Shown here one piece after another: positions 30,517-57,056 of a stretch of DNA of 64,000 bases. The notes beneath the pieces are model-generated. The model saw only the letters and a list, made by a program, of their open reading frames with translations, was not told where the DNA came from and did no database searches. This stretch comes from an uncultured bacterium. Its GTDB lineage: Bacteria > Verrucomicrobiota > Kiritimatiellia > RFP12 > UBA1067. The stretch is from the NCBI GenBank assembly GCA_902801025.1, contig CADCGZ010000004.1:5568-69567 (forward strand), written 5' to 3'. A program made the translations under genes and the position numbers. Every line of letters starts with the position of its first letter. The stretch's first letter is position 1.

Positions 30517-30582
30517 TTGCGCGAAATTCACGGAAAATTTATCGCGCTTCTCACGCTTTAGATGTCCGAAAGATGGTAGAAT
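30517..30582 (+). promoter_or_regulatory. Activator-type promoter: direct-repeat operator plus -10 (GH2 operon)
   Basis: TTGCGCgaaaTTCAC (30517-30531), degenerate second copy TATCGCgcttCTCAC (30540-30554), 22 nt, then TGgTAGAAT with its -10 hexamer at 30577-30582. There is no -35-like hexamer. AAGGAGG lies before ATG 30610. Confidence 0.5.
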
Positions 30583-30609
30583 ATCCGGCAAAGAAGGAGG
30601 ACTTTACTT

Positions 30610-33600
30610 ATGGACCACCGAGTTACGTCAGTAGTGCTGGGAGCTGTCGCTTCCGTTTTCCTCGCCAGCGGCTCAAGCGCCGAGGGCGTGAAGTTCAACG
30701 GAGTCTTCGCGCCGTCCGAGGGCTTCGTCAACCGACTCGAAAAGCCACAGCGCGCGGAGGTGTGCCTCAACGGCCGGTGGGATTTCCAGGGTTTCAAGAC
30801 TCCTGCGGGGTGGAAGGACGGCAAGGGTCAGCCGCCGGAGCTCCCCGCGCCGGCCGCGGACGGATGGGACGCCGTGAAGATCAAGATTCCCTCCCCGTGG
30901 AACGTCAACAACTTCTGCCTGCGCCGCAGCGAAGGTCCGGACCACCGCGACTTCCCGTCGTATCCCGACGCGTGGCGCGACTACAAGATGGGGTGGCTGC
31001 GCCGCTCGGTGACTGTTCCCTCGTACTGGGACGGACGCTCCATCGCCGTGCGCTTCGAGGCCGTCGCAGGCGAGTGCGTCGTTCTCGTGAACGGGAAGAA
31101 GGTCGCCGAGAACTTCGAGCTGTTCCTTCCGTTCGAGGCCGACGTAACCGATGTGGTCAAGCCGGGCGAGACGTTCGAGCTCCTTGTCGGCGTTCGCGGG
31201 CAGAAGCTCTTCGAGGACCGCGAGGGCGTGGGCCGCCGCGTGATTCCCGCCGGCTCGATGTGGGGCGGCGAGATCATCGGCATCTGGCAGGACGTCACGC
31301 TCGTCGCGCGTCCGAAGCTCCGCGTCGCGGATGTCTTCGTCAAGCCGCTCGTCTCAAAGGAGACGCTTGAGCTGGAGGTGACCGTGGAGAACGTTGGCGA
31401 CGCGCCGGCCGGGGCGGAACTCGGCGCGACCGTGAGCGACTGGATCAACCGCGCCGGAACGGACGTCCTTTCCGCGCCCGTTCCATGCTGGGAGCAGGGC
31501 ATGTCGCGGCTTGGCAAGGTGTTCGGCCGCGTAGACGTGCCCGCGCGGTCGTCGAAGACCATGACAGTGTCCATTCCCGTTGTAAAGGGAACGCTTCGCG
31601 AGTGGACGCCCGAGACGCCGAACCTCAATTCGCTCGTCGTCTCGCTTACGGAGGACGGACGCTTCGTCGACCGCAAGGCCGAGCGCTTCGGATGGCGCGA
31701 GTGGACGATCGACGGAGGAAAGTATCTTCTCAACGGGAAGCCGATCCAGTTCCGCAGCGACTCGTGGCACTTCATGGGCGTTCCGCAGATGACGCGCCGC
31801 TATGCGTGGGCGTGGTTCAAGGCGATCAAGGAGGCCAACGGAAACGCCGTGCGCCTCCACGCGCAGGTCTACCCAAGCTTCTACCACGACGTCGCTGACG
31901 AGATGGGCATCTGCATTCTCGACGAGACTGCCAACTGGGCTTCGGACGGCGGACCTAAGTTCGACCGCGAAATCTTCTGGAAGAACTCGATCACGCATCT
32001 CGAGCGCTTCATCAAGCGCGACCGCAACCACGCGTCCGTGCTGGGATGGTCCGTCTCGAACGAGAACAAGCCCGTCATCCTCCACGTCTTCAACCGCCCC
32101 GACCTCATGCCGTTCCAGGAGAAGGCGTGGGCCGACTGGCGCGACACGTGCCGCAGGCTCGATCCGACGCGTCCGTGGATCTCGTCCGACGGCGAAGAGG
32201 ACGGAAAGGGGATTCTCCCGATCACGATGGGGCACTACGGCGATCTTGTCCATTCGTACAAGGCCTGGTCCGAAATCGGCAAGCCGTGGGGCGTCGGCGA
32301 GGCCAGCATGGCGTACTACGGCACGCCGCAGCAGGTCGAAGAGCGTGCCGGCTCCGAGCGCAGCTACGCGTCCGCGCTCGGGCGCATGGAGGGCCTCGCG
32401 AAGGAGTGCTACGACATCATCTGCGCGCAGCGCGCGAACGGCGCGTCCTACTCGTGCGTCTTCAACCTCGCGTGGTACGCCCTGAAGCCGCTCCCGTTCG
32501 GCAAGCGCGACCTTACGAAGGCGCCGACGCTCGAGGACGGCATCTTCTTCGGCGAATACGTGGAGGGACGTCCCGGCTACCAGCCCGAGCGCATCGGGCC
32601 GTACTCCTCGACGTTCAACCCCGGATACGACCCAGCGCTTCCGCTCTGGGACGCGTGGCCGATGTACGACGCGGTGCGCGCGGCGTTCGCGCCTGAGGGC
32701 CCCGCGTGGTCGAAGTGGTCGATCCGTCCCGAGAGGTGCGCGGCGGATTCGCCGCGTCCCGTGCGCGAGTATGCCGAGGTAGTCTGCGTCGGCGGAGGAA
32801 AGCTCAGGGGCGTTCTCGACGCGCAGGGCGTTGTGTTCGCCGAGAAGGTGAACGAGCCCGCGAAGGCGCTCGTCTTCGTCGACGCGTCGTCTCCGCTCAA
32901 GTCGGAGCAGGCCGCGGAAGTCGCGGAGCTCGTGAAGAAGGGCGCGGACGCGTGGGTGTGGGGCGTCACGGATGCGAGCGCGGAGTCCGTAAAGCCGATC
33001 GTCGGCGAGGGGCTTGAGGTCGCGAAGCTCGTGCGCTCGACGTTCATCCCGATGGACCGTCCGCTTGTGCGCGGACTCTTCAACAGCGACTTCTACTTCT
33101 GCGAGCTCCAGCGCGGCGACGCGGCGAAGTTCTCGCTCGGCGGCGAGTGGATACGCTCCGCCGAGGTCGAGGTCGAGGCGTGCCGGACAGACTGGCGCGA
33201 GTGGAACAAGAAGGCGGAGGAGATGAAGACCGCCGCGATCATCCGCACGGAGAACGAGTGCACCGCGCCGCTCGCAGTAATCGCGACTCGCCGCGTCGGC
33301 GCTGCTAAGGTGCGCGTGCAGACGCTATTCGACTTCGCGAACTCCGAGAAGGGCTACAAGACGCTCTCGCGCATGCTCGCGAACGCTGGCGTGAAGTGCC
33401 GCACGGTCGTGAGCGATCCGGCCGAGGCGTTCTTCCTCCGCGACGGAAAGATCATGTTCCCGTCCGTCACGCGCAAGACGCTCAAGAACATCGCGCCGAG
33501 GAAACACACGCTTGAATTCTACGTCTACTCGAACCGTCCGCTCGACGACCTGCTCATCGAACCCGACATGCCCAAGCTCATGCTCTGGATGAAGGCGCGC

Positions 33601-33813
33601 GGGTCGACGCTCAAGGTCGGCGAGAAGGAGGTCAAGGAGACGCGGCGCACGGACCGCGAGGTCGAGTACAACGAGCTTCCGCTCCAGCAGGGCTGGAACA
33701 AGCTCTCGATCGTCGTCGACGGCGATCGCAACGAGTTCGAGGCGGAGCTCCGCTGCAACAACAAGCCGGAATTCCTCCAGACCGTCCGCGCCTCCCTCAA
33801 GCCGCAGGAATAG
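30610..33813 (+). CDS. GH2 family glycoside hydrolase, exported
   Basis: 1067 aa with signal VVLGAVASVFLASGSSA. GH2 TIM-barrel motifs are NAVRLHAQVYP and HASVLGWSVSNEN, preceded by sugar-binding/Ig-like regions. Confidence 0.85.
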   Translation: MDHRVTSVVLGAVASVFLASGSSAEGVKFNGVFAPSEGFVNRLEKPQRAEVCLNGRWDFQGFKTPAGWKDGKGQPPELPAPAADGWDAVKIKIPSPWNVNNFCLRRSEGPDHRDFPSYPDAWRDYKMGWLRRSVTVPSYWDGRSIAVRFEAVAGECVVLVNGKKVAENFELFLPFEADVTDVVKPGETFELLVGVRGQKLFEDREGVGRRVIPAGSMWGGEIIGIWQDVTLVARPKLRVADVFVKPLVSKETLELEVTVENVGDAPAGAELGATVSDWINRAGTDVLSAPVPCWEQGMSRLGKVFGRVDVPARSSKTMTVSIPVVKGTLREWTPETPNLNSLVVSLTEDGRFVDRKAERFGWREWTIDGGKYLLNGKPIQFRSDSWHFMGVPQMTRRYAWAWFKAIKEANGNAVRLHAQVYPSFYHDVADEMGICILDETANWASDGGPKFDREIFWKNSITHLERFIKRDRNHASVLGWSVSNENKPVILHVFNRPDLMPFQEKAWADWRDTCRRLDPTRPWISSDGEEDGKGILPITMGHYGDLVHSYKAWSEIGKPWGVGEASMAYYGTPQQVEERAGSERSYASALGRMEGLAKECYDIICAQRANGASYSCVFNLAWYALKPLPFGKRDLTKAPTLEDGIFFGEYVEGRPGYQPERIGPYSSTFNPGYDPALPLWDAWPMYDAVRAAFAPEGPAWSKWSIRPERCAADSPRPVREYAEVVCVGGGKLRGVLDAQGVVFAEKVNEPAKALVFVDASSPLKSEQAAEVAELVKKGADAWVWGVTDASAESVKPIVGEGLEVAKLVRSTFIPMDRPLVRGLFNSDFYFCELQRGDAAKFSLGGEWIRSAEVEVEACRTDWREWNKKAEEMKTAAIIRTENECTAPLAVIATRRVGAAKVRVQTLFDFANSEKGYKTLSRMLANAGVKCRTVVSDPAEAFFLRDGKIMFPSVTRKTLKNIAPRKHTLEFYVYSNRPLDDLLIEPDMPKLMLWMKARGSTLKVGEKEVKETRRTDREVEYNELPLQQGWNKLSIVVDGDRNEFEAELRCNNKPEFLQTVRASLKPQE

Positions 33814-33824
33814 CGGCCGCAGGC

Positions 33825-36485
33825 ATGAGACCACTCGTCTCAGCGTTGTGCGCATTCGCCCTGCTCCCGGCGTTTGCCGGCGTAGCGGGGCTTGACGCCG
33901 TCTCGCGCGGCGCGGACCCGACGGGTCAGCGCGACAGCGCCGCGGTGATGCAAAAGGCGCTAGACGAGCTCAACCGCGCAGGCGGGGGGACGCTGTATCT
34001 CCCGCCCGGAAAATACAGGCTCGAGAAGCCGCTTTACGTCGAGGGCGGCAATTCGATCAGGGGCGCGGGCTCTTCCGCCGCCAACTGGCCCGCCAACAGG
34101 CCGTCGATCCTCTGTGTGGCTTTCGGACGGGGCGACACCAACCTCGTCAAGAACGCGGCCGTGAAGCTCAGGGGCGGAGCATCGCTCAGGGACGTCGCGA
34201 TATGGCATCCCGACCAGCGCTTCGAAGACCCGGTGCCGTATCCTGCGAGCATCTGGGGCGACGGACACACCAGCGTAGTCGACGTAACGCTCGTCAACTC
34301 GTGGTGCGGATTCTACAACAACCACTGCTCGTCCATGCTCGTGCGCGGTCTTCGGGGCACGGCCCTGAACATGGGCATCCGCGCGGCTTATGCGTTCGAC
34401 GTTCCTCGCATCGAGCACGTCGCGTTCGATCCCGCGTACTGGGCGGCATCGGGACTCCCCGGATCGCCGAAGACTCCTTCTGCCATGCGGAAGCTCGAGA
34501 CGTGGGCCGAGAACAACCTGATCGCGATAGTCGCCGGCGAGCAGGACTGGGGATACTGGTGGGACGTGTTCGTCGACCATGCGAAGGGCGGCATCTTCCT
34601 CACGGTCGTGCCGGACGACAAAGGGGAACGCATGAACCCCGGCAACATCGCCGCCGGAAAGGTCGTGATGCGCAACGTCCAGGTAGGCATTGAGATGAAG
34701 AACGTCGGCTACCCGGGCTTCCTGCTTACGTACGGCGACATACAGGCGCGGTTGTGCTGCATGCACTACTCGAAGGTGCCGGACTACTCGAAGTTCCATG
34801 CCGTCGGCATAAAACCGTACTACAGCTGGAACGCGGCAGTGCAGGTGACGGGAGTCAAGTTCTCCGGCGCGAAGACGCTGTTCAGGTCCGACAAGGACAA
34901 AGACGGACTCATCTACTGCATCAACTTCAACGACTGCACGTTTTCGGACTGGAAGGACTGCGCGATAAGCCAGTTGCGCGGCAGTTTGGTCGCGTCCAAC
35001 TGCAGATTCAGCGGAAAGGGCGCGATACGTCCGGGCGAGAACCTCTCGCAGATAGTGCTCAGCGGCAATACGTTCTCCGGCGAGGCATTCGCAGTGAAGC
35101 CCTCCGCCTCGACGGTCGTCTCGCGCGACGACCGCGAGAAGGGCGTCGTCTCGCTCCCATACGACATGCCCGAGCCGAAGGAGCGCGAATTCAAGGGCAA
35201 GGTGTTCGACGTGCTGGACTACGGCGCAACGCCCGGAAAGGTAGACGACATCCCGGTGAAGGACAGCTCGCCGGCCTTCGCGGCTGCGCTTGCTGCCGCG
35301 GGCAAGGCGGGAGGCGGCACGGTATTTGCTCCTGCTGGAGTCTACCGCATCGCGCGCGGGATCAAGGTGCCGTCAGGCGTCGAGCTGCGCGGCAGCTTCG
35401 AGGCGCAGCACTATGGCAACTCCACGCACCGCGGCACGCAGCTCTACGTGTACGCAGGGAAGGGCGACCCCGCGTCCGCGCCGCTCATCACGCTCGAGCC
35501 AGACGCTGGTGTAGGCGGATTCACGGTGTACTATCCGGAACAGGGCGTGACGGACGACTCCTCCGCCGACGAGGCGCTGCGCGTGAAGCGCTATCCGCCT
35601 ACTGTGCGGACGGCTCCGCGCTGCCAGGTGAGGAACATGGCGATCGTCAATGCCTGGACGGCGATCGACGCGATCACGGTGAGGAGCGACGGACTTCTCG
35701 TGACGGATGTGACGGGAGGAGCTCTCGACGCAGGCGTAATCGTAGGACACGGCACTACCGGCGGTCTCTTCCGCGACATACACTTCAATTATACTGGGTG
35801 GGTCGGGCAGGGCAAGTACGAGAACCATCCGAGGGGCGACGACTGGGACAAGACGACGACGTGCGGAATGTTCGCCGACTTCACCACGCGCGTCACGCGC
35901 GGATTCGTCCTCTGCGACGCGAAGGAAGTGAAGCTTCACTCGTGCTTCTGCATAATGGTCGCCGAGGGCGTGTCGCTTGAGAAGGATCCGTACACGGGCG
36001 GATCGTTCAAGGGTTCGACGTGGGGACTTGCGTTCGACGCGAACACGAATGGGATCGTGGGGCACCGCGGCGCCGCGCCTAAGTTTGTGGCCAACTGCGC
36101 AATGGGCGTCTTCAGCCGTCAGCAGGGCGGATACTTCGTTAAGACGGAGCCTGGCTTCGCCGGCGCGATCGCGTCCGTCAATTCCGAGATCTGGTCCGGA
36201 CGCTCCCGCATCGTCGACCTTGAGGGCGGGCGCACGATACTCTCGCAGTTCCTCTCTTGGTGCTGCTACGAGGGCGTCGTGAAGAAGGGAGCGTCGCTCA
36301 CCGTGTGCGGGGCGTCGTTCGCGTCCAACAATGGGAACGACAAGGGCGAGAAGACGACAATAACATACGAACGCGGATCTTCCGGGGCCGTCTGCGGTTC
36401 CGTCGACGGACGCAGGTTCCTGAAGGTCGTTGACGAGACCGGCGGCAAACTCGCCTGGCGCAACAACGGCGTGCGGATAGACTGA
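33825..36485 (+). CDS. GH55-like / pectate-lyase-superfamily double beta-helix protein, exported
   Basis: 886 aa. It has two copies of the N-terminal signature of Pectate_lyase_3-type domains: GADPTGQRDSAAVMQKALDELNRAGGGTLYLPPGKYRL and VLDYGATPG..DSSPAFAAALAAAGKAGGGTVFAPAGVYRI. Confidence 0.75.
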   Translation: MRPLVSALCAFALLPAFAGVAGLDAVSRGADPTGQRDSAAVMQKALDELNRAGGGTLYLPPGKYRLEKPLYVEGGNSIRGAGSSAANWPANRPSILCVAFGRGDTNLVKNAAVKLRGGASLRDVAIWHPDQRFEDPVPYPASIWGDGHTSVVDVTLVNSWCGFYNNHCSSMLVRGLRGTALNMGIRAAYAFDVPRIEHVAFDPAYWAASGLPGSPKTPSAMRKLETWAENNLIAIVAGEQDWGYWWDVFVDHAKGGIFLTVVPDDKGERMNPGNIAAGKVVMRNVQVGIEMKNVGYPGFLLTYGDIQARLCCMHYSKVPDYSKFHAVGIKPYYSWNAAVQVTGVKFSGAKTLFRSDKDKDGLIYCINFNDCTFSDWKDCAISQLRGSLVASNCRFSGKGAIRPGENLSQIVLSGNTFSGEAFAVKPSASTVVSRDDREKGVVSLPYDMPEPKEREFKGKVFDVLDYGATPGKVDDIPVKDSSPAFAAALAAAGKAGGGTVFAPAGVYRIARGIKVPSGVELRGSFEAQHYGNSTHRGTQLYVYAGKGDPASAPLITLEPDAGVGGFTVYYPEQGVTDDSSADEALRVKRYPPTVRTAPRCQVRNMAIVNAWTAIDAITVRSDGLLVTDVTGGALDAGVIVGHGTTGGLFRDIHFNYTGWVGQGKYENHPRGDDWDKTTTCGMFADFTTRVTRGFVLCDAKEVKLHSCFCIMVAEGVSLEKDPYTGGSFKGSTWGLAFDANTNGIVGHRGAAPKFVANCAMGVFSRQQGGYFVKTEPGFAGAIASVNSEIWSGRSRIVDLEGGRTILSQFLSWCCYEGVVKKGASLTVCGASFASNNGNDKGEKTTITYERGSSGAVCGSVDGRRFLKVVDETGGKLAWRNNGVRID

Positions 36486-36492
36486 GGAATTA

Positions 36493-36558
36493 TTGCGCAA
36501 TTTTCACGGTGATTTTTGCGCGGATTTGACTCTACATCTGCGATGGCTTTGCTATAAT
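36493..36558 (+). promoter_or_regulatory. Activator-type promoter: direct-repeat operator plus extended -10
   Basis: TTGCGCaattTTCAC (36493-36507), TTGCGCggatTTGAC (36516-36530), 22 nt, TGcTATAAT (-10 at 36553-36558). AAGGAGG lies at 36575-36581 before ATG 36587. Confidence 0.55.
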
Positions 36559-36586: not shown

Positions 36587-39500
36587 ATGAAACATGCGCA
36601 AGTCAAAAAGCATCCAGAATTTGTCCCGTCCATGAGGTGCCTTGCTGCTGCGGCATTTGCCGGCATGGCGGCATTCTCCGCCGGCGCGGCAAACAAATTT
36701 TGGACGCCGCAGAATGGCTCGACCGACATCAGCGATCCAAGCAACTGGGGTGGCGCTCTTCCCGGAAACGGAGATCTTATGATGTTCCGCGGAAATGACG
36801 GGTTGTCCGGAGACTATGCGGTGAGGATACCTGCCGCAACGGCCGAGAACCCGTATCAAAGCAAGGCAGGGGTTTTCTTCGGCAACTTGAACGATGGCCA
36901 GACTGTGACAATTGACGCGACGGGCACCTCCTGGCTTGTCATGCGCGATGATGGACAGCCGTGGGGCTATCCGATGCGCGCCTGGTTGTCGGATCACATC
37001 TTCGACATTGACAGTGCCGGAGATGCCAGCAAACCGGCCAACGATTTTGCCTTCTCGTTCTCCAACGGCACCATGACCTTCAAGCGCGACTCTGCAAATG
37101 GCTCCGCGCTTGTGTTCAACGGCGACTTCAACATGGCAGTCGCTCCCGATGGCACGGAGAATGCGCACAGAACGGTTCTCTTCCACGATGTAAACGCCAA
37201 CAGCAAGAATTCCAAGATCATCTTCCACAGCGGCGAGTCGACGCTGCGGTGGATACAGTTCCGCGGCAAGACGGAGGGCAACGAGTTCCGTGTTGACGGA
37301 GGACGCCTCCATGTCCTGAGCGGACTGGTAATCAATGAAGATTCCGCGAACTATACTACAGATGCCTACATGCATGTCACGGGAGACGGCCAGGTGTCTG
37401 TAGATTCTGGGGCTCTGTGGATCGGCCGCAACAACGACGGGCGCGGCGTGCTGCGAATCGACGGGAACGGCAAGTTCACCATGACCGACGGGACGATAGT
37501 CACATACTTCCCGGATGGCGCGGCGCAGACGGGGCTCCTTTCAATCGGAGGAAACGGCGAGTGGAATTCCGTGAAGAACATCAATGTCGGCAACAATGGC
37601 GGCACAGCCGACATCCTTGTCGAAGGAAACGGTTTCTTCAACCATTCGGGATGGTTCAACTTCGGCTCCCATAACGGCTCGCATGTCTCGCTCACGATGA
37701 AGGACCAGGCACGCGCAATAGTTACGAGCGCAGCGATGGTCAAGGACGCCGGTTCCGGCTCTACCCGCACGGGTGTTGTCGACCTGAGCGGCGACTCGGT
37801 TCTCCAGATCGCCAGCAACGACCAGTGGGCCAACTCGGCCGGGTCCGATCTGACATTGAACATGACGAACAATGCGACGCTCAAGGCCAAAAAGGCGAAC
37901 GGCGAACGCCATTTGATTTTCGGCAACAACAACGGCGCCGACATCAAGCTGAATCTCGCGGGCGGGACGATATGCGACTACGACGGCAACGAGCTCATAC
38001 ATCTGCAGCTCAAGGGCGGGGCCCAGAGCGTTTACAACTTCTCCGGCGTGACGGTCAATACCGAGAACTTCATCATCGAGGGCAAGCAGGACACGTCCGC
38101 TCCGGACGCCTGGCATATCGCCCATCAGACGGCTGGTACGATCAGCGTCCGCTGGCATGGCTCAGGCGACGGTCTCGACATCCGCGGTGGCAACGGGCGC
38201 AACTGCATGTACCTTCTCGAGGGCGGTACGCTCAACGTCGGCAACATGATTCGCGTTGGACATAACGTTACCGACAGCAGTAAACAGTGGCGCTCAGTGT
38301 TCCGCCAGACGGGCGGACAGGCGAACATTAGCGCGAACGTGAACATGTGCGACTCCGCTACGATGGCCGAGTTCGAGCTTCTAGGCGGGCGTACGCGTCT
38401 CTATTCCCTGCGCGGCTGGAGCCAGAGCGTTGCGCGCAAGGCGGGCGGCGCATGGGCGACGGCACTCTTCGACGGCGGCACAATTGAGCCGTGGGCAAAC
38501 GGAAACACTACCATATATACCATGCCGGAACTTCGCCTCGGCGCCAATGGCCTCACGTTCGACACGCTTGCATACGACAACATCTCAATTGACGCGAAGT
38601 TCCAGAACGAGGGCGAGGGGACGGATGATGAAGCCGAAGGCCTCTTCGTGAAGACCGGAACCGGTACCCTCAAGGCGAACATGCTTGAGACAAACGGACT
38701 GTACGTCGATCGCGACATTCGCAGCTACCATTCCAGGACGCGCATCGACCAGGGCAAGCTCATTCTCACCAAGGCTGCAGACGTCGCTTTCGGAAAGAAC
38801 ATCACGGTGAAGGGCGGCGCCACGCTCTCGCTCGAGGGAACGGCGGCGACGCTGACGGTCGATACGATTACGCTCGGCGACGGGCATGGCTTCGCCGTCC
38901 TCAAGCTTGACGCGGGCGATACGGTCGTCGTCGAGGCGGCGAACGGCGTCACGGCCAACTGCGGCGCGATCGACGTGCCGTGGAAGTCCACCGATGGAAA
39001 TCATGCCGTCTTTACGTGCAAGCAGAGTGTCCAAGTAGGGGAACTCGACAAGATCGCAGTCCACGACGGCGATGCGACAAAGGACTATGCATGGACAACC
39101 GAAGTCGACAACGACACCGGCTACACCATCTGCTCCGTCACCGTAGCGCCCAAGGGTACGCTCACGAAGACGATCACCTATTCCAGCGGCGCTGTCACGA
39201 CGAACGGCACGGGCAAGGTCTCCGGCATCATCGCCGAAGAAACTGGCACGCAGAGCGGCGAACTCGTTCTCTCCAGCACGGCTTCGGTTTCCGTTGACGC
39301 CGATCAGACGATGACGCTCAACGGTCCGCTCGTCGGCACGGGCGTTGAACTCAAGAAGACGGGATCCGGCAAGCTCGTCGTCGATGGCTCGAATCCTGAC
39401 TTCTATGGTTCATTTGCGTCAGGTGGCGGTGCCTTCGAGGTCCTGTCCGCTGCCGGGTTCGGCGCGAATCCGGTTAACTTCCCGCTCGTTCTCGGCGGCG

Positions 39501-41113: not shown

Positions 41114-41140
41114 CGGGTAAGATGGCAGAAAGACTAAAGC

Positions 41141-48671: not shown

Positions 48672-48680
48672 GGACTTCAC

Positions 48681-51476
48681 ATGAAAAAATCGCTTTCGCT
48701 TTCGTTTTTGCTTGTCATTGCGGTCGCCGTGTCGGGTGCGGCGTTCGGATGGCAGAAAAAGACTGCGCCGGTCATGACGCAATGGGCGGACGACGTCACG
48801 CCGGAGAACGTCCTACCCGAGTATCCGCGTCCGCAGATGGTGCGCTCAGAGTGGATGAACCTGAACGGCGTGTGGGAGTTCGACTGCACGCGCGGCATCA
48901 CCAACCGCATCCCGGCGGACGAATGGAAGGGCTGCGACCGCGCTGTCTTCGACAAGGTCGAGTTCGGCAGGAAGCTCCCGCGCGAGATTCTCGTGCCGTT
49001 TCCGGTAGAGTCGGCGCTCTCCGGCATCATGGAGCGCGCCGAATATCTCAAGTACCGCCGCACCTTCAGTATTCCGAAGGGCTGGCGCGACAACGGCCGT
49101 CACGTGCGGCTAAACTTCGACGCCGTTGACTGGAAGTGCGACGTCTATCTCAATGGAAAGCTCCAGGGCGGGCACGAAGGCGGATACGACGCGTTCTCGT
49201 TCGACGTGACGAAGGACTTGAAGGACGGCGACAACGAGCTGATCGTCACGGTGTACGATCCGACCGACAACGGCACTCAGCCCGTCGGCAAGCAGCGAAA
49301 CGAACCGGAGGGATACTGGTACACGCCGAACAGCGGAATCTGGCAGACGGTGTGGCTTGAGCCGGTTGACGAGTTTGCGGCGACTGGCATGAAGCTGATC
49401 CCCCATGTGCGCGAGGGCTGGCTCGGCGTGACGGTCAAGGCTTCGGAGAAGCTGCAGGAGGTCGAGCTTGAGGCTCTCGACGGCGGGAAGACGGTGGCGA
49501 AGGCGAAGGGCTACGTGAACAGTGAGATCCGTCTCGATATGCCGAAGGACATGAAGCTCTGGAGCCCCGACTCGCCGTTCCTCTACGACCTCAAGGTAAA
49601 GATGACTCGTCGCTACAGGGTGGTGGATGAGTTCACGAGCTATTTCGGAATGCGCGAACTCGGCAAGAAGATTATCGACGGCGTGATGCGTCCGACGATC
49701 AACGGCGAGTTCGTGTTCCAGAACGGCACGCTCGACCAGGGGTACTGGCCGGACGGAAACCTGCGCGCCGACGCGCTCAAGAGCGACATCGAGAAGCACA
49801 AGCAGCTCGGCTTCAACCTCATCCGGAAGCACATCAAGGTGGAGCCGCAGCGCTGGTTCTACTGGTGCGACAAAATCGGCATGCTCGTGTGGCAGGACAT
49901 GCCTTCCATGCACACTCACGCAGTCGCGTCGCGTGACGAGAAGAAGCGCAGGGGATTCCGTCCGAACGCCGCAGAGAAGACGCTCTTCGAGGGCGAGCTC
50001 AAGGAGATGATCGACGAGCACATCTCGTCTCCGTCAGTCGTCTGCTGGATACTCTTCAACGAGGGGTGGGGCGTCTACGAGAAGGAGGATGTCAAGCGGC
50101 TTGCCGACTGGGTGTCTCAGTACGATCCTTCGCGCTGGCTTGACGACTCGACGGGACTCCCGAACGAGCATGCCGCAGGAGACGTGTATGACGTCCACAT
50201 CTACACGGGCCCCTCGGCCGGCGTCAGCGAGCGGCCGTGCTTCAGCGTGCTCGGCGAGTGGGGCGGAGTGGGCCTGAACGTCAAGGGCCACACCTGGTTC
50301 GAGCGCGGCGGGTGGTCGTACGACACCACGAAGGGCAACGCGCAGCTCAACGAACGCTACCTGAAGATGCAGGACGAGCTTCTCAACAACATGTACTTCC
50401 CCGGGCTTTCCGCGGCGATGTACACGCAGATATCGGATGTCGAGGGGGAGACGAACGGCATCCTGACCTACGACCGCAAGGTCTGCAAGTTCGACGAAGC
50501 GGCGCTAAAGGCGAAGCACGACAGACTCGTCCGCGAGTCGAAGAACCTCAAAAAGGTCACGGATGCGAACGCGGGTGTGAAGATCTCTGCGCCTGTAACG
50601 GTCAAGGCTGGCGCTGATGGCGCGTATGTGTTCGCCAAGGCCGACGGCGAGGAGGATTCTTTCCTGACCGCGGCCGTTGCGGAGGCGAGGACCGTCGTTC
50701 CCGCCAAGGCGGGCGCAGAGGCGGGCGTAGTGATGCGCCTGACTCAGGAAGGCGGCTATCTCTTCGGCATTAGGGGCGACGGCACGCTGTTCATCCGCGC
50801 TGTCGGTTCCGCCTTCGGCGAGAAGGCGCCGTCGGTCGAGAGGAAGACCACTCTCAAGGGCGAGGTTGTCCTCAAGGCCACTGCCTGCGGCAGCATGTTT
50901 TCGGTGAGCGTGGGGCGCGAGAGACTTGTCATGAACGACGCTCGCTGTCCCGTCGGGCGCTGCGGCGTGTATGCCATGGGTGCTGACGCAACGTTCATGG
51001 AGTTCGGCGTGTCGAATCCGATGCGCCTTATCCGCTGGATGAACGGACCCGTCAAGTACTGGGTGACGCGCGACGAGATGCGCGAGGTCGCAGGTCCGGA
51101 CGGAAAGAAGGCGAAAATCCCCGAAGTGCGGGCGATCATCGACTGCAACGCGAAGGTGGCTGCAGACGCCTACTGGGAGATCGAAAATGGCCTTGCGGAC
51201 GGCAAGGGCCTGTCGTTTCGCCACATGGGACATCCTGGCAGCTATCTCGCCATTGACGCCGACGGATTCTGCAACGTGATCGAGGACGACGGAAGCGAGG
51301 ACTTCGCGAAGCGCGCCACGTGGTACGACAGGCCGGGACACGAGGTGCCTTTGCTCCATTCCTTCGAGTCCTGCGCAGAACGGGGGAAGTTCCTGCGTGC
51401 GCGTGGCCGTCTGAAGGTCGATGACCCGAAGTCTGGCGGATTCCGCCTGGACTCGACGTTCGAGATACTCGACTGA
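48681..51476 (+). CDS. GH2 family glycoside hydrolase with C-terminal AbfB/ricin-like lectin domain, exported
   Basis: 931 aa with signal LSFLLVIAVAVSGAAFG. Motifs are YPRPQMVRSEWMNLNGVWEF, FNLIRKHIKVEP and PSVVCWILFNEGWG. The C-terminal GLSFRHMGHPGSYLAIDADGF is lectin-like. Confidence 0.85.
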   Translation: MKKSLSLSFLLVIAVAVSGAAFGWQKKTAPVMTQWADDVTPENVLPEYPRPQMVRSEWMNLNGVWEFDCTRGITNRIPADEWKGCDRAVFDKVEFGRKLPREILVPFPVESALSGIMERAEYLKYRRTFSIPKGWRDNGRHVRLNFDAVDWKCDVYLNGKLQGGHEGGYDAFSFDVTKDLKDGDNELIVTVYDPTDNGTQPVGKQRNEPEGYWYTPNSGIWQTVWLEPVDEFAATGMKLIPHVREGWLGVTVKASEKLQEVELEALDGGKTVAKAKGYVNSEIRLDMPKDMKLWSPDSPFLYDLKVKMTRRYRVVDEFTSYFGMRELGKKIIDGVMRPTINGEFVFQNGTLDQGYWPDGNLRADALKSDIEKHKQLGFNLIRKHIKVEPQRWFYWCDKIGMLVWQDMPSMHTHAVASRDEKKRRGFRPNAAEKTLFEGELKEMIDEHISSPSVVCWILFNEGWGVYEKEDVKRLADWVSQYDPSRWLDDSTGLPNEHAAGDVYDVHIYTGPSAGVSERPCFSVLGEWGGVGLNVKGHTWFERGGWSYDTTKGNAQLNERYLKMQDELLNNMYFPGLSAAMYTQISDVEGETNGILTYDRKVCKFDEAALKAKHDRLVRESKNLKKVTDANAGVKISAPVTVKAGADGAYVFAKADGEEDSFLTAAVAEARTVVPAKAGAEAGVVMRLTQEGGYLFGIRGDGTLFIRAVGSAFGEKAPSVERKTTLKGEVVLKATACGSMFSVSVGRERLVMNDARCPVGRCGVYAMGADATFMEFGVSNPMRLIRWMNGPVKYWVTRDEMREVAGPDGKKAKIPEVRAIIDCNAKVAADAYWEIENGLADGKGLSFRHMGHPGSYLAIDADGFCNVIEDDGSEDFAKRATWYDRPGHEVPLLHSFESCAERGKFLRARGRLKVDDPKSGGFRLDSTFEILD

Positions 51477-51511
51477 TTCTTTGTGCAAATAACAACAACG
51501 GAGAAACAACG

Positions 51512-53149
51512 ATGAACAGAATGGCAGTAGCATTGATGGTTGGGTGCTGCGCATTGACGGCGTCGGCGTACGACGTACGCTTCAAGAACATCTACCAGAG
51601 CAGGATGGTCCTGCAGGCTGGGATGCCGAACGACGTCGCCGGAAGGTCCGATCCCGGCGCGGCGATAAGCGTGACGGGAGAGGCGGTGAAGCCCGGCAAG
51701 GCGCCCCAGATGATCTCGCTGCATGTGAAGGCCGATTCGACAGGGCGCTGGACGGTGACGCTTCCGGCCCTGCCGAAGCGGACAGTCCTGAAGCTGACGT
51801 GCTCAGACGGGAAGACGTCGAAGACGATCGAGGATGTCGTCTTCGGGGAGCTCTGGCTGTGCTCCGGGCAGTCGAACATGGAGTGGAACTTCAACGCCAA
51901 CACGATCCCCGCAGACTATCTCGAAAAGTGCCGCGCGAGCGTCCCCGCGTTCGCCGGAGACATCCGCACCATCGTGACCGAGCGCAACTGCCTCGTGAGC
52001 GAATGCGACGAGATCGGCGGAACATGGAACCGCATCGACAAGGGCGACGATCTGCGCTGCGCGGGGTCGCAGTTCGGCTATCTCTTCGCGCAGCTGATTT
52101 CCAAGGCGCTCGACACGCCGGTCGGAATCATCGACTCTTCTGTCGGCGGCTCGCGCATCGAGCCGTGGATCCCCGCGTCCGCGTTCAAGGAGACGAACGT
52201 GCCGTTCCACACGCAGGACCGCCGCGCGTTCCGCTGGGACACCTACCAGGCCGCGCTTGCGAATTTCGCGAAGGACCGCGAGGACTTCATGTCGCGCCGT
52301 TCGAAGTGGCTCTCGGACAATCCGAGCAACGACCTCCGCAACCGCAACCGCGACACGATGCCGCAGCCTCCGATCGACGAACTCGCGCTCGACCACATGC
52401 CGGCGAAATTCTTCAACGGCAAGATTTGCGGACTCTTCCCGCTCAAGCCCGCAGGCGTACTCTGGTACCAGGGCTGCTCCAACGAGGGCGAGCCGTACGA
52501 ATACGGCGAGCTCGCGAAGCTACTCGTGACGTCGTGGCGCAAGTTCTTCCGCACGGAGTTCCCGTTCTACTACGTGGAGCTCGCCGCGATCAACGATCCG
52601 CAGAGCGAGCCCGTGCAGAAATGGTCGTGGGGCGGAATCCGCGAGGCGCAGGGCGAAGTGCTTGCGCTGCCCAAGACTGGCGTCGTCACGTCCGCCGACG
52701 CGGGCGGATCCGAGAAGCTCGGACTCGGCGACATCCATCCGCCCTGCAAGAAGATGATCGCGGAGCGCGCCGCAAAGCTGGTGCTTGCCGAGGTCTACGG
52801 GAAGGGAAGCGCCGTCGCCGCGCGTTCCCCGTACTACTCGGGCGTCTCGAAGGCGGAAGGCGGAAAGTTCCGCGTGAAGATCGCCAATGCCGACGGGCTC
52901 CGCCTGATGCCGGGCAAGGATAAGATCGACGGCTTCGCCATCCGCGGCGAAAAGAAGGACGACTGGAAGTGGGCGAACGCCGTGATCGAGGGGGATGAAA
53001 TCGTCCTCTCCTCGCCCGATGTGCCGAAGCCCGTTGCCGTCCGCTACGGCTGGGCGCGCCGTCCGCGCCTCACGCTCGAAAGCGCGCACGCTCTTCCGCT
53101 GCGTCCGTTCTCGACCGACCACGGCTCGACGCTCGACTACGGCAAATAA
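51512..53149 (+). CDS. Sialate O-acetylesterase (SASA/DUF303 family), exported
   Basis: 545 aa. The hallmark is FGELWLCSGQSNMEWNF, with GVLWYQGCSNEG further on. The N-terminus is signal-like. Confidence 0.88.
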   Translation: MNRMAVALMVGCCALTASAYDVRFKNIYQSRMVLQAGMPNDVAGRSDPGAAISVTGEAVKPGKAPQMISLHVKADSTGRWTVTLPALPKRTVLKLTCSDGKTSKTIEDVVFGELWLCSGQSNMEWNFNANTIPADYLEKCRASVPAFAGDIRTIVTERNCLVSECDEIGGTWNRIDKGDDLRCAGSQFGYLFAQLISKALDTPVGIIDSSVGGSRIEPWIPASAFKETNVPFHTQDRRAFRWDTYQAALANFAKDREDFMSRRSKWLSDNPSNDLRNRNRDTMPQPPIDELALDHMPAKFFNGKICGLFPLKPAGVLWYQGCSNEGEPYEYGELAKLLVTSWRKFFRTEFPFYYVELAAINDPQSEPVQKWSWGGIREAQGEVLALPKTGVVTSADAGGSEKLGLGDIHPPCKKMIAERAAKLVLAEVYGKGSAVAARSPYYSGVSKAEGGKFRVKIANADGLRLMPGKDKIDGFAIRGEKKDDWKWANAVIEGDEIVLSSPDVPKPVAVRYGWARRPRLTLESAHALPLRPFSTDHGSTLDYGK

Positions 53150-53166
53150 GGAATGGACCAGCTGTT

Positions 53167-54582
53167 ATGAGACCAGCTATTGTGAAAAAATTCATGTTGA
53201 CCGCGCTTGGCGCGCTGTCGGCGGCACTTTGCGCCGCAGACATGCCCCGCGCGACGCCGGAGTCGCAGGGCGTCAGCTCGCAGGCGATCATCGACTGGCT
53301 CGACGCCTGCAACGCCGAGATGAAATACATGCACGGGTTTGTCGTCGTGCGGCACGGAAAGGTCATCGCCGAGGGCGCGTGGGCGCCGTTCGACCCGCTG
53401 ACGCGTCCGCACATGCTCTATTCGCACTCCAAGAGCTTTACGTCGACCGCGATCGGATTTCTTGCGGACGAAGGGAAGGTAGACCTGGACGAGCGCATAG
53501 CTGACATATTCGCGGACAAGATGCCGACGAATCCACCGCCGGAGCTGCTTGAGGTGCGCGTGCGCGACCTGCTGACCATGAACTTCGGGTCCGACGCGAG
53601 CCATGCGCCCAAGTGCAACTTCGCCCTTGCCGACTGGGAGAAGGGCATCCTCTCGCGCCCGATGGAGCGCCGTCCGGGCACGAAGCACCGCTACGACTCC
53701 GACGCGACGTACCTCCTTTCGTGCATCGTCGAGAGAAAGAGCGGAATGCGGACGATGGACTACCTCAAGGCCAAGCTGTTCGATCCGCTCGGCATGACAA
53801 GCCCCTGGTCGACAGTCTCTCCGTCCGGCACCGCCTGCGGCGGCTGGGGCATGAACATGACGACGCGCGACATCGCGAAGTTCGGGCAGTTCCTGCTCGA
53901 CGGAGGCGTGTGGGACGGGAAGCAGCTGCTTTCGCGCGACTGGATACGCCTCGCCTCCGCAAAGCACACGGCTTCAGGCGGCGGACCCGACTGGCGGCTC
54001 GGCTACGGGTTTCAGTTCTGGCGCTGCCAGCACAACGCCTACCGCGCGGACGGCGCGGCTGGCCAGTTCACGATCGTCATGGAGGATCAGGACGCGGTCG
54101 TCTCCCTCAATGCGGCCGAGGGCAACACGCAGAAGGAGCTTGACCTTGTGTGGAAGCATCTCGTCCCCGCGTTCGGAGACCGTCCGCTCCCCGACGACGC
54201 GGAGCTTCAGAGCAGGCTCGCGGACAAGTGCGCGAAGCTCGAGATATCCGCGCCGAAGGGAACGGGGCTCGCGGGTTCGGCGCTTCCGGCGGCGTGCAGC
54301 TACGGACGCAGCAACCTGATGCCGGAGGGCAAGGGCACGCTGGAGAAGTCTGATTCGGGCTGGACACTCGTGGGCGGCAACCGCCGTCTCGCGATCGGCG
54401 ACGGAGCCTGGGCGGAGACGACGTGGAAGTTCGACGACGGCAACGTCGAGCCGCTTTTCGCGCTGGTGGGCACGCGCACCGCAATTGCCGCGGGACGCTG
54501 GACGAACGAGAAGACCCTCCGCGTGAGCTGGCATCTCCTCGACTGCACGCAGAAGGGCGAGTTCGAGGTCAAGGTGCAGTGA
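53167..54582 (+). CDS. Serine hydrolase of the beta-lactamase/transpeptidase-like family, exported
   Basis: 471 aa. S-x-x-K motif in MLYSHSKSFTSTAIGFL, signal-like MLTALGALSAALCAA, and GGWGM in the later part. Confidence 0.85.
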   Translation: MRPAIVKKFMLTALGALSAALCAADMPRATPESQGVSSQAIIDWLDACNAEMKYMHGFVVVRHGKVIAEGAWAPFDPLTRPHMLYSHSKSFTSTAIGFLADEGKVDLDERIADIFADKMPTNPPPELLEVRVRDLLTMNFGSDASHAPKCNFALADWEKGILSRPMERRPGTKHRYDSDATYLLSCIVERKSGMRTMDYLKAKLFDPLGMTSPWSTVSPSGTACGGWGMNMTTRDIAKFGQFLLDGGVWDGKQLLSRDWIRLASAKHTASGGGPDWRLGYGFQFWRCQHNAYRADGAAGQFTIVMEDQDAVVSLNAAEGNTQKELDLVWKHLVPAFGDRPLPDDAELQSRLADKCAKLEISAPKGTGLAGSALPAACSYGRSNLMPEGKGTLEKSDSGWTLVGGNRRLAIGDGAWAETTWKFDDGNVEPLFALVGTRTAIAAGRWTNEKTLRVSWHLLDCTQKGEFEVKVQ

Positions 54583-54623
54583 CTGCCATCGCGTTGTGAC
54601 AGTTGCTGAATCGAGGTGAACCG

Positions 54624-56981
54624 ATGAATGGACCTTCAATGAAATTGCTTTCCTTTTGCATAGCATCCATCGGACTGTACGCCGCCGCGCATGCGGGTGC
54701 GCCTGCGGCGGCGAGATACGAGGCGGAGGACGCGCGGCTCGCGGGCGGCGCGTCACTCAAGGGGCCGAGCCTGGTTCAGTCCGATATCGCCGCGCAGGCG
54801 TCGGACATGAAGTACGTCGAACTTGGGACGCGCGGCGCGAAGCTGGAGTGGAAGGTGCGCGAGAGCGGAGTCGACGGCGTCACGCTGCGCTTCACAATGC
54901 CCGATCGGGAGGACGGATGGAAGCAGAGCAATCCGCAGGACGAGACTCCGCAGTACCGCCGCGAGGAAGTCTTCTGCGGCTCGCTCGAGCTGCGCGTGAA
55001 CGGGAAGAAGCGCAAGGTGCGCCAGTACGGGAAGGTCTCCGAGGCTATTCCGCTCTCCTCCTACTGGATGTGGCAGTACTTCGTCGGTGACCGTCCGGCG
55101 GACGAGCCGGGCGGACACGAGATTGCGCGCTTCGCGTTCGACGAAGTGCATTTTGCGATAGACGGCGCGCCGCTTGCAAAGGGCGACGTGCTGTCGCTCG
55201 CGAACGGCGACGGGAAGTATCCGTACGGCGTCGATTTCGTTGAGCTCGAGAAAATCCCGGCGCCGATTCCGCAGCCAGAGGGCTCGCTCAGCGTCGCGGA
55301 CTTCGGCACGGGGCGCGAGGCGATCGACAAGTGCTTCGCCGCCTGCCGCGAGCAGGGGAAGACGATGTACTTCCCTTCGGGCGTGTGGGAGTACTGGACG
55401 AAGACAGGCGACAACCGCTGGCTCCTGAACGGCGCATCCAACATGAAGATCACCGGCGCGGGCATGTGGCACACGAACCTGCATTTCCCGGGCTCTAAGC
55501 CGTTCGGCGGTGGCGTCGGAGGTGACAGGCTCGCGAAGGGAACGGAGTTCTGCCACATGTACCTCAGCTCGATGCTCCGCTCCCGCTTCAACCAGAACGC
55601 GGTCTACAAGGGCATCATGGAGGCGTGGGGCGAGGGGGCGAAGCTCCACCATCTCTGGATCGAGCACTTCGAGTGCGGATTCTGGCTCGGCGACTACCAG
55701 TCGCCCGCGAAGCCGACCGTGAAGGCTCATATCCACGACTGCCGCGTACGCAACAACCTGGCGGACGGCATCAACTTCTGCCAGGGAACGTCCGACACTC
55801 TTCTCGAAAACTGCAGCTTCCGCGGGAACGGCGACGACGGAATCACGATCCGCAACGTCTCCAAGGACAATCTCGTGAACCTCCAGGAGAAGGACAAGAA
55901 GTGCATCGTCTGGGTCAAGGAGCCAGTCTTCTCCTCCTCCGACTCGGCATCCGCTGGCGACGGCGGATGGGACAGGCGCTTCAAGTACGACTGGCGGATC
56001 GACCTCAAGGACGGAGCAGCGGCGTCGCACTCCATCGAGAACGGCGGCGACGGGCGGGTCAAGGTCGTAGTGACGCGGCCGCGCGCGGCGTATTCGCCGC
56101 GGAAGAGCAGCGCACGGACGGTAGTGATACGCAAGGGCGTTACAAAGCTCTCCAGGCCTCTTGTGCTCGCTTCCGACGAGGAGCTGTTCCTTGAGGAGGG
56201 GGCGGTGCTTACGGCCGATGCGGAGTCGAAGGACTTTCCGGTCTGCGGACGCAAGGACTCGCTGGAGCGTCCGCTCACATGGCTCATTACGACCGAACCC
56301 GGAGCGACGAACGTCGCCATACGCGGAAGCGGAGTGATCGATGCAAACGGTACCGAGATGTTCCGCCGCGGCATGCTTGTCTCCGCCGTCGTTCCGCACG
56401 CATGCGACGGTTTCGTGATGGAGGGAGTGACTGTCGTCGACGGAAACTTCTGGACCGTGACGCCCGTCCGGTCGCGCAATGTGAGGCTGAGGGACGTCGC
56501 CGTGCTGAACGACGTCGACGATCTGCGCGAAAACGACGCGTTCGACGTGTGCGAAAGCTCCGACGTGGTAGTCGAGAACTGCCTCGGCGTCTCGCGCGAC
56601 GACTCGTTCTCGACGAAGACATGGTCCGGGCACCGCGGGCAGGTCGCGGCGAAGTGGCATGGCGGCCCGCTTCCGCTCGAGCGCGTCCTCTTCAAGGGCT
56701 GCACGGCGTGGACGAGGTGCGCCGCGTTCAAGGTCGGCGACGGCGTCTCGCAGCCGCAGCGCGACGTGGTGTTCCGCGACTCGCGCGCGTTCGGCTGCCG
56801 GCACGCCGTGCGCTACAGCCACGCCAACGGTCTCGCCGAGACGAAGGGCGTAGTGTTCGAGAACATCCGGATTGACTCGTGGGACAACCGCAAGTGGCCC
56901 TTCGGATGGCTTGACATAGCGCCTGCCGAAGCCGGCGTTCCCGGAGAGCTTACGCTGCGCAACATCATTGTCCGAGAATGA
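54624..56981 (+). CDS. Exported protein with CBM-like N-terminus and two beta-helix glycosidase-like regions (GH87/GH28-like)
   Basis: GAGGTG lies 6 nt before ATG 54624. Signal MKLLSFCIASIGLYAAAHA, then RYEAEDARLAGGA (CBM-type). The first helix motif is NNLADGINFCQGTSDTLLENCSFRGNGDDGITI. The second is ENDAFDVCESSDVVVENCLGVSRDDSFSTKTW. Confidence 0.7.
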   Translation: MNGPSMKLLSFCIASIGLYAAAHAGAPAAARYEAEDARLAGGASLKGPSLVQSDIAAQASDMKYVELGTRGAKLEWKVRESGVDGVTLRFTMPDREDGWKQSNPQDETPQYRREEVFCGSLELRVNGKKRKVRQYGKVSEAIPLSSYWMWQYFVGDRPADEPGGHEIARFAFDEVHFAIDGAPLAKGDVLSLANGDGKYPYGVDFVELEKIPAPIPQPEGSLSVADFGTGREAIDKCFAACREQGKTMYFPSGVWEYWTKTGDNRWLLNGASNMKITGAGMWHTNLHFPGSKPFGGGVGGDRLAKGTEFCHMYLSSMLRSRFNQNAVYKGIMEAWGEGAKLHHLWIEHFECGFWLGDYQSPAKPTVKAHIHDCRVRNNLADGINFCQGTSDTLLENCSFRGNGDDGITIRNVSKDNLVNLQEKDKKCIVWVKEPVFSSSDSASAGDGGWDRRFKYDWRIDLKDGAAASHSIENGGDGRVKVVVTRPRAAYSPRKSSARTVVIRKGVTKLSRPLVLASDEELFLEEGAVLTADAESKDFPVCGRKDSLERPLTWLITTEPGATNVAIRGSGVIDANGTEMFRRGMLVSAVVPHACDGFVMEGVTVVDGNFWTVTPVRSRNVRLRDVAVLNDVDDLRENDAFDVCESSDVVVENCLGVSRDDSFSTKTWSGHRGQVAAKWHGGPLPLERVLFKGCTAWTRCAAFKVGDGVSQPQRDVVFRDSRAFGCRHAVRYSHANGLAETKGVVFENIRIDSWDNRKWPFGWLDIAPAEAGVPGELTLRNIIVRE

Positions 56982-56990
56982 TGGCGCGTC

Positions 56991-57056
56991 TTGCGTAATA
57001 TTCACGATTTATTTTGCGCTGTCGTCACGGCACGGGCAAAGTAAAAATTGTATAAT
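56991..57056 (+). promoter_or_regulatory. Activator-type promoter: direct-repeat operator plus extended -10
   Basis: TTGCGTaataTTCAC (56991-57005), TTGCGCtgtcGTCAC (57014-57028), 22 nt, TGTATAAT (-10 at 57051-57056). A leader of about 60 nt runs to ATG 57125. Confidence 0.55.

Follow-up and report, generated by a model that had tools for sequence, protein, structure and literature searches.

Introduction

At the araBAD promoter, AraC uses direct half-sites (I1-I2) reaching roughly from -72 to -35, the proximal one of which overlaps the -35 region; the regulator is encoded divergently and can autoregulate. It carries a cupin-type arabinose domain, its 17-bp half-sites follow each other in a 21-bp register, and a distant looping site (O2) belongs to the system. 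The repeats of XylS are also set in a 21-bp register. At its promoter Pm, XylS binds two homologous direct repeats of 15 bp. In each of them, box A lies on the 5′ side and box B on the 3′ side, and recognition helices 3 and 6 read the two boxes; the proximal repeat is occupied before the other and makes the contact with polymerase (PMC5481539). The operators of Escherichia coli XylR, ~37 bp in length, are each built from a pair of direct repeats and adjoin the -35 (PMC3561964). The present work concerns a 38-bp element of comparable anatomy that precedes five transcription units in a 64,000-nt stretch of DNA (contig CADCGZ010000004.1; the whole stretch is termed the window hereafter), and the XylR-type regulator gene next to the first of these units, reg1, the product of which probably reads it.

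Kiritimatiellae, the lineage from which the window originates, abound in rumen and gut, where they degrade polysaccharides, and most of them are uncultured. A search of the searchable literature on Kiritimatiellae/Kiritimatiellota together with AraC or XylR regulators yielded nothing relevant, and no account of their transcriptional control. An earlier note on this DNA, made from the letters alone, had proposed that the five promoters share an AraC/XylS-type operator; its claims are taken up below where the results bear on them.

Results

Judging by its closest relatives, the window (G+C 61.9%) stems from an uncultured rumen-type Kiritimatiellae bacterium, the regulator of which is 88-89% identical to those of the metagenome-assembled genomes (MAGs) Tb.RUG.298, MAG202, and SRR873601_bin.89. 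A glycan-degradation cluster of ~30 kb comprises five transcription units, each behind one operator, and reg1 is transcribed divergently from the first. Domain assignments by Pfam bore out the gene units that the earlier note had described downstream of the operators (GH, glycoside hydrolase; CBM, carbohydrate-binding module; HTH, helix-turn-helix):

29277-30473, minus strand: reg1, XylR-type regulator with a periplasmic-binding-protein-like sensor and an AraC-type two-HTH DNA-binding domain; the proposed cognate factor
30610-36485, plus strand: Unit 1, GH2 (30610-33813) and a GH55-like/pectate-lyase-fold protein (33825-36485), separated by 11 nt
36587-41113, plus strand: giant protein 1, 1508 aa, with a signal peptide and sub-threshold PATR-like beta-strand repeats
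41303-45829, plus strand: giant protein 2, 1508 aa, paralogue of giant protein 1
45948-56981, plus strand: Unit 4, GH43+CBM, GH2+AbfB, SASA esterase, beta-lactamase-like protein, and beta-helix protein (GH28/alpha-1,3-glucanase-like)
57125-60355, plus strand: Unit 5, GH2 (exo-beta-D-glucosaminidase-like) with a malectin domain

According to the translation, the true start of Unit 5 is the ATG at 57125, which is followed by a signal peptide. As gaps within units measure only 9-35 nt (the range observed in Unit 4), the five gaps carrying the motif are the only plausible promoter regions between 30.4 and 57.2 kb. An Rfam scan of the whole window returned no match; thus, the conserved upstream regions are not explained by a riboswitch or leader RNA. 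No SusC/SusD genes were found when the cluster was surveyed with Pfam.

The five operators and their -10 boxes are:

30517-30554, plus strand: operator 1, distal copy TTGCGCGAAATTCAC, 8 nt, proximal copy TATCGCGCTTCTCAC with degenerate box A
30577-30582, plus strand: -10 box of Unit 1 (GH2a/GH55-like), TAGAAT, preceded by TGG (extended -10)
36493-36530, plus strand: operator 2, TTGCGCAATTTTCAC, 8 nt, TTGCGCGGATTTGAC, starting 8 nt past the stop codon of the preceding gene
36553-36558, plus strand: -10 box of giant 1, TATAAT (TGC-extended), with a weak -35, TCTACA, at 36531-36536
41209-41246, plus strand: operator 3, paralogous copy of operator 2
41269-41274, plus strand: -10 box of giant 2, TATAAT
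45876-45913, plus strand: operator 4, distal copy reduced to box B (TTCAC, 45886-45890), proximal copy TTGCGTGTAATTCAC perfect
45936-45941, plus strand: -10 box of Unit 4, TATTAT (TGC-extended)
56991-57028, plus strand: operator 5, TTGCGTAATATTCAC, 8 nt, TTGCGCTGTCGTCAC
57051-57056, plus strand: -10 box of Unit 5, TATAAT

All five sites were located exactly where the earlier note had placed them (distal/proximal copies starting at 30517/30540, 36493/36516, 41209/41232, 45876/45899, and 56991/57014), each with two TTGCGY-N4-TTCAC 15-mers in a 23-nt register and, in five of five, exactly 22 nt between the end of the proximal 15-mer and the -10 box (in site order, TAGAAT, TATAAT, TATAAT, TATTAT, and TATAAT). 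The composite operator thus measures 38 bp, that is, two 15-bp direct copies and an 8-nt spacer. Each copy consists of box A (TTGCG) and box B (TTCAC), the centres of which are 10 bp apart. The copies are direct repeats, point the same way with respect to the gene at every site, and are located upstream of the -35 position. In a set of 25 non-redundant promoters, the box order is A-B-A-B with spacings of 10, 13, and 10 nt, and the consensus reads TTGCGc.ATtTTCACGgt.ATTTTTGCGc....tTCACg-(N17)-aataTGgTAtAAT, which identifies the -10 as the extended TGn type; most of the individual -10 boxes are of this type.

Three of the earlier claims had to be qualified. Although the motif is present five times, the promoters at 36493 and 41209, which precede the giant genes, are 95% identical over 110 nt (blastn) and therefore paralogous duplicates, so that only four promoters are independent. 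The reported lack of a -35 hexamer holds for three promoters (1-3 of 6 matches), but those of the giant genes carry a weak TCTACA (4/6) with a 16-nt spacer. Of the two copies described as degenerate, the one at 30540 is indeed so, in its box A. The one at 45876 has kept its TTCAC box, but the remainder of 45876-45890 (GCGCGGTCGCTTCAC) belongs to the terminator hairpin of giant 2 (45854-45885), whose 3′ arm the distal copy overlaps. In the orthologous GH43-type promoter of MAG202, which has no giant gene ahead of it, the distal copy likewise consists of TTCAC only. The promoter at operator 4 carries one and a half copies. In this unit, the ATG of the GH43 gene (45948) follows the -10 box by only 6 nt and lacks a Shine-Dalgarno sequence, which fits a transcription start at the predicted place and a possibly leaderless mRNA; an internal start at 45972 would be the alternative. 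The other hydrolase genes and the giant genes have AAGGAGG-type ribosome-binding sites.

The frequency of the motif was compared with chance in the window. At no more than one mismatch, the half-site matched 12 times, compared with 3.06 ± 1.69 times in shuffled sequence, a fourfold enrichment that none of 100 shuffles reached. Eight of the 12 matches, all of them claimed copies, were intergenic, that is, in 5.9% of the window (binomial P 6e-8); the other four were one-mismatch, intragenic matches at about the number expected by chance. Of the gaps of at least 60 nt, all five between 30.4 and 57.2 kb carried the motif, whereas none of the eight elsewhere in the window did. In a scan with a matrix trained on these same claimed sites, every claimed copy scored at least 21 bits, the next match (in the same regulator-GH2 spacer) 17, and all others at most 14. 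In the set of 25 promoters, the information content was about zero in the 22-nt spacer and in the flanks. As positions outside the boxes are uninformative, the shared element is not simply duplicated DNA.

The operator was found again in the divergent promoter of every reg1 orthologue listed here (loci are given by L number): at 88% regulator identity (L001, L002, and L003), 81% (L048), 78% (L076), 77% (L052), 69% (L032, on a contig with 50% G+C), 66% (L053 and L049), 65% (L083), and 60% (L054). All have kept the distal copy, the 8-nt spacer, a proximal copy in which TCAC is invariant, and 22 nt from there to TGnTAnnnT, in surroundings that are not conserved. In a footprint alignment of nine such reg1/GH2 promoters (60-100% regulator identity; the window promoter, L032, and seven further loci, with L001 standing for the three 88% loci and L083 left out), 45% of the operator columns and 75% of those in TGnTAnnnT were near-invariant, versus 0-10% in the flanks. 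In more distant homologues, related repeats lie upstream of promoters with a real -35: a 55% homologue has ATGCGCAATATGGGA/GTTCGCAGGATGGAA in a 23-nt register, and 47% homologues have a TTGCGC-N4-TTCC repeat in a 24-nt register.

Conservation extends to the other targets. The site was kept upstream of GH2a orthologues in nine genomes, at the GH43-type operon in two (L002:2499 and L049:3998), at the GH2c orthologue of MAG202 (L090:887), and upstream of giant-1 homologues in L034, L090, and L024; conservation at orthologous genes in several genomes is what would be expected of a co-regulated regulon. In MAG202, the regulator lies at about 37 kb on a 263-kb contig, and the GH2c orthologue (97%) and the giant-1 homologue (64%), each with its own operator, lie at 72-80 kb, 35 kb away from it; further sites are located at 106, 108, and 121 kb of the same contig, ~69-83 kb from the regulator. 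Orthologous targets thus retain the operator even when relocated by 35-85 kb. The content of the cluster differs between genomes with ~90% identical proteins, and there are relatives without giant genes between the GH55-like and GH43 genes. A survey of the genes adjoining the sites, remote ones included, revealed no regulator gene other than reg1 orthologues.

Across the lineage, the genes behind the operator encode GH2 (three kinds), GH55-like, GH43, GH3 (two), GH92 with GH31, and GH28/beta-helix proteins, SASA and GDSL esterases, beta-lactamase-like proteins, and several giant secreted proteins. Regulon genes that are dispersed in relatives are those for GH3, GH92, GH31, a GDSL esterase, and further giant PATR-type proteins.

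Public sequence data were scanned with three patterns. In species-representative genomes (596 Gb), the strict two-copy pattern occurred at only 8 loci; three of them came from two MAGs with 88% orthologues, and a fourth precedes a giant-1-like gene. Among the 185,579 species genomes, the strict-pattern matches with the full motif features all came from MAGs, and in five of these six MAGs, the contigs examined included a reg1 orthologue (65-88% identity). A looser pattern without a -10 box matched 21 loci in metagenomes. At 12 of these, all on contigs resembling rumen-type Kiritimatiellae, a TAnnnT-type -10 (mostly TATAAT) followed 21-22 nt past the proximal copy, usually with TG ahead of it; since the -10 box was not part of the search pattern, its recovery is independent. 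The third pattern, which combined the distal copy with TSAC, 22 nt, and TANNNT, matched 44 times. Twelve of the matches were in reg1-bearing MAGs, and these 12 alone had a proximal box A together with the ATTT spacer and TG.

The remaining matches were rejected. Those of the 21 metagenome loci were unrelated 23-nt tandem arrays or chance matches. Outside Kiritimatiellae, the first two scans (half-sites 23 nt apart) returned mostly such arrays and a few single chance sites, and the third returned single chance sites without proximal box A, ATTT spacer, or TG. The false-positive arrays (L019, L020, L021, L023, L025, L027, and L043), from high-G+C Actinoplanes, Acidimicrobiaceae, Gemmata, Sorangium, and Planctomycetota, have 23-nt units that happen to contain TTGCGC-N4-TTCAC, and their period equals the register of the motif.

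The XylR-type nature that the earlier note had assigned to the divergent regulator was confirmed by its Pfam domains (Peripla_BP_3, PF13377, residues 122-282, 4.7e-26; HTH_18, PF12833, residues 314-390, 1.4e-13) and by its best match in the PDB, E. coli XylR (4FE4, E 3.7e-30; 4FE4/4FE7 on top), to which residues 103-376 align with chain residues 107-385. The ATG at 30473 is corroborated by a 99%-identical database protein of 398 aa. The candidacy of reg1 as the cognate factor is supported by the comparative genomics above, which makes it the most likely reader of the 38-bp operator. Its own promoter is predicted at:

30481-30509, minus strand: putative reg1 promoter, -35 TTGCCT (30504-30509), 17 nt, -10 TACCAT (30481-30486), 7 nt to the ATG

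This layout recurs in orthologues (for example, TTGACT-17-TACAAT-6-ATG in L053). No Shine-Dalgarno sequence precedes the ATG, and the mRNA is probably leaderless. The putative promoter stands back to back with the distal copy of operator 1, which makes autoregulation possible. The first HTH (CSRRTAEMRF) tracks the conservation of box A down to 47% identity; such covariation between HTHs and boxes is suggestive only.

The giant proteins have no significant match to any Pfam or NCBIfam family, and only a sub-threshold one to Pfam PATR (E 0.0053); of two giant proteins of the lineage with a match to the PATR repeat, one match is significant and one below the family threshold. Giant-1 homologues of 50-64% identity are also preceded by the operator. 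At the DNA level, alignment of the two genes of the window is limited to the promoter/5′ end (86-95%) and the final 234 nt (75%), their bodies having diverged beyond detection by blastn. Either gene conversion directed at the ends or diversifying selection in the middle part could have produced this pattern. That the promoters are 95% identical while the genes have diverged points to selection or gene conversion on the promoter. The close relatives L001 and L002 lack the giant genes at this position, but MAG202 has them at another place (L090). In L024 (RUG14821), a tandem array of ~40-nt units (…GCGATTATGGTGCGGAAC…) at ~3800-4060 directly precedes the operator.

Terminator hairpins close three of the units:

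41140-41169, plus strand: terminator-like hairpin after giant 1
45854-45885, plus strand: terminator hairpin of giant 2
60390-60413, plus strand: terminator hairpin and T-run at the end of the cluster

Those after giant 2 and the GH2/malectin gene have a common core, CGCGCGGCA-CATT-TGCCGCGCG, from which the one that follows giant 1 differs slightly (GCGCGGCA-AATG-TGCCGCGC). Another variant, with the loop CATC, follows the GH2c orthologue of MAG202 (L090, about 4280-4312). A terminator module thus recurs in the cluster.

Beyond the cluster, the window encodes a second XylR-type regulator, which the earlier note had missed:

60834-62048, minus strand: reg2, 34% identical to reg1
62091 and 62113: direct repeat TTGGCG(A/T)AAAAGA in a 22-nt register, followed by TGGTAGAAT at 62148-62156
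62164-63555, divergent from reg2: major facilitator superfamily (MFS) sugar transporter

The ATG of reg2 follows a -10 box by 6-7 nt (in the region 62049-62075) with no Shine-Dalgarno sequence, which suggests a leaderless mRNA here as well. In other Kiritimatiellae MAGs, the divergent promoter of an XylR paralogue of 30% identity contains TTGCCGAAATGATAC/ATGCCGGAAAGATAC in a 22-nt register, then 22 nt and TATAAT (L011, ~4930-5040; L012, ~9800-9910), a third case of the same scaffold with a private box code. That the repeats of reg2 and of this paralogue differ within the same geometry argues that each paralogue reads its own operator.

Between the terminator of the cluster and the 3′ end of reg2, the gap at 60420-60833 (~410 nt) is apparently non-coding, with a G+C of 51.7% versus 61.9%, and neither an Rfam match nor a convincing open reading frame was found in it. 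Genes for HPr kinase/phosphorylase and enzyme I of the phosphotransferase system (PTS) are located at 5340-8404, 22 kb upstream of the cluster, and may take part in carbon catabolite control here.

Discussion

The 38-bp element is probably the operator of a sugar-responsive XylR-type activator of the AraC family, and reg1 is the most likely candidate for that activator. From the DNA sequence, we infer binding, activation rather than repression, the transcription start sites, co-induction of the units, and an inducer. With transcription taken to start 7 nt after the -10 box, an assumption on which the promoter positions rest, the two copies would span about -72 to -58 and -49 to -35. Boxes A and B would lie in adjacent major grooves and be read by the two HTH motifs of one AraC-type domain, so that the two direct copies, 23 bp apart, would hold two DNA-binding domains. 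The proximal domain would sit where the -35 hexamer is missing, substitute for the -35 contact, and recruit RNA polymerase to the extended -10 promoter in a class II-like manner. A sugar or oligosaccharide bound in the periplasmic-binding-protein-like domain would switch reg1 on.

Several observations weigh against this assignment. The register of 23 bp is 2 bp longer than the 21 bp of AraC/XylS. E. coli XylR is published as an antiparallel dimer that, in the model, holds two separate duplexes and bridges separate operators (PMC3561964), which does not readily account for the filling of tandem copies. In the divergent promoter of reg1 itself, the proximal box A is degenerate in most orthologues, and a 63% orthologue (L050) has a degenerate site only and no -10 box at 22 nt; L050 may be either an exception or a diverged promoter. 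The 55% orthologue has an almost identical second HTH, yet a different box B. Lastly, reg1 belongs to a large paralogous family (424 database matches at E <= 1e-40), and with many XylR paralogues present in Kiritimatiellae genomes, a factor encoded elsewhere is conceivable.

That such a factor, for example another XylR/AraC paralogue, reads the operator, with reg1 merely being a target, is nevertheless unlikely. The size of the family, the second XylR paralogue in the window (34% identity), and a proximal box A that is consistently weaker in the promoter of reg1 than elsewhere would agree with it. However, the motif accompanies reg1 orthologues, in an unchanged divergent layout, from 100% to 60% identity, reg2 and another paralogue own different repeats, and no other regulator gene adjoins any of the remote sites.

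If reg1 does bind, it could still mainly repress, or be dual, by occluding polymerase at an extended -10 promoter that is active by itself. Extended -10 (TGn) promoters can work without a -35, the giant-gene promoters have the weak -35-like TCTACA directly past the proximal copy, and AraC itself is a dual regulator. Repression is nonetheless improbable, as the copies are upstream of the -35, clear of both the -10 and the start site, and as the fixed 22 nt to the -10 in more than 25 promoters bespeaks the need for a polymerase contact on a given face of the helix, not for occlusion. Furthermore, the 47-55% homologues with a good -35 (TTGACA/TTGACT) have their repeats further upstream, as is typical of activators.

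Response regulators of the OmpR/PhoB type also use direct repeats that replace the -35, and the repeats could in principle be the -35 element of an alternative sigma factor of the extracytoplasmic function (ECF) type, but both possibilities are very improbable: the boxes alternate (A-B-A-B at 10, 13, and 10 nt) instead of forming a uniform 10-11-bp repeat, the -10 is the canonical housekeeping TGnTATAAT and not an ECF-type one, and no such gene accompanies the sites. There is hardly any likelihood that the element has no regulatory meaning and is a duplicated promoter cassette or a small mobile element, for although the giant-gene promoters are clear duplicates (95% over 110 nt) and close relatives differ in the genes of the cluster, promoters share no sequence outside the boxes, orthologous promoters have kept the boxes but not the flanks, terminal repeats are absent, and the two giant-gene promoters have stayed 95% identical though their genes diverged beyond detection at the DNA level. 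An operator for a LacI/ROK-type repressor was rejected because the copies are direct, not palindromic, and upstream of the -35 position.

With activation by reg1 as the preferred reading, a broader one may tentatively be put forward, although it is itself rather doubtful: rumen Kiritimatiellae may have expanded a family of XylR-type one-component activators that use one invariant promoter scaffold (two 15-bp copies with boxes A and B in a 22-23-nt register, 22 nt from an extended -10, no -35) with a private box code for each paralogue, and the cassette may repeatedly have been recruited in front of giant PATR-type secreted proteins. If so, these proteins would be dedicated parts for glycan capture or degradation, the functional counterpart of the Sus-like surface machinery. 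Should dimers of the activators share the antiparallel form of E. coli XylR, a single one could link two operators among the many in a cluster.

For an AraC/XylR-type activator, a specialist would expect such a mechanism, and the surprise it holds is modest. What it may offer is a link between giant proteins of no recognisable domain and the control of glycan breakdown, via an operator apparently shared with glycoside hydrolases. The motif could serve to delimit glycan-utilisation regulons in Kiritimatiellae MAGs without SusC/D markers, and together with reg1 provides a candidate sugar-inducible promoter/regulator pair for a phylum without genetic tools. The locus is also a worked example of operator-promoter cassettes that travel with genes while the content of the cluster is reshuffled between close relatives.

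Among known systems, the hybrid two-component and SusR-type regulators of Bacteroidota polysaccharide utilization loci resemble the arrangement described here in that one sugar-sensing regulator serves a glycan cluster with several operons for enzymes and surface proteins. In contrast, the regulator here is a cytoplasmic one-component protein with no membrane histidine kinase, and the cluster has no SusC/SusD. The AraC/XylS class II design is apparent from tandem repeats whose sub-boxes lie a helical turn apart and from a proximal copy at the place of a poor or absent -35. AraC differs by its cupin domain, its 17-bp half-sites at a 21-bp register, and its O2 looping site, and none of these was seen here. 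XylS at Pm of the TOL plasmid likewise has a pair of 15-bp direct repeats, both divided into boxes A and B (PMC5481539), but has a benzoate-binding effector domain instead of a periplasmic-binding-protein fold, and its boxes read TGCA-N6-GGNTA. As far as the sequence can tell, the regulon design would thus be the textbook one of AraC/XylS class II-like systems, and what would be new is the lineage, the regulation of which is undescribed in the searchable literature.

Closest is XylR of E. coli. An orthologue of the xylAB/xylFGH regulon in the strict sense was rejected: XylR targets xylose isomerase, kinase, and an ABC transporter, whereas the targets here are secreted hydrolases (GH2, GH55-like, and GH43), esterases, and giant surface-type proteins, and the XylR consensus (gaAa-a-a-AAT) is unrelated to TTGCGY-N4-TTCAC. 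Moreover, there are at least five operators per cluster here, plus dispersed ones, and the promoters are of the extended -10 type without a -35. Membership in the XylR type in the wider sense is borne out by the domain architecture, by significant similarity to the XylR structure, and by a two-repeat operator of the ~37-bp type at the -35 position. The operator anatomy, as the earlier note had read it, matches the documented operators of both XylR (PMC3561964) and XylS (PMC5481539). With XylR, the regulator described here shares a LacI/GalR-type periplasmic-binding-protein fold joined to an AraC-type two-HTH domain, a place beside its sugar-utilisation targets, and an operator of about 37-38 bp with two direct repeats, as in the xylA and xylF operators IA and IF.

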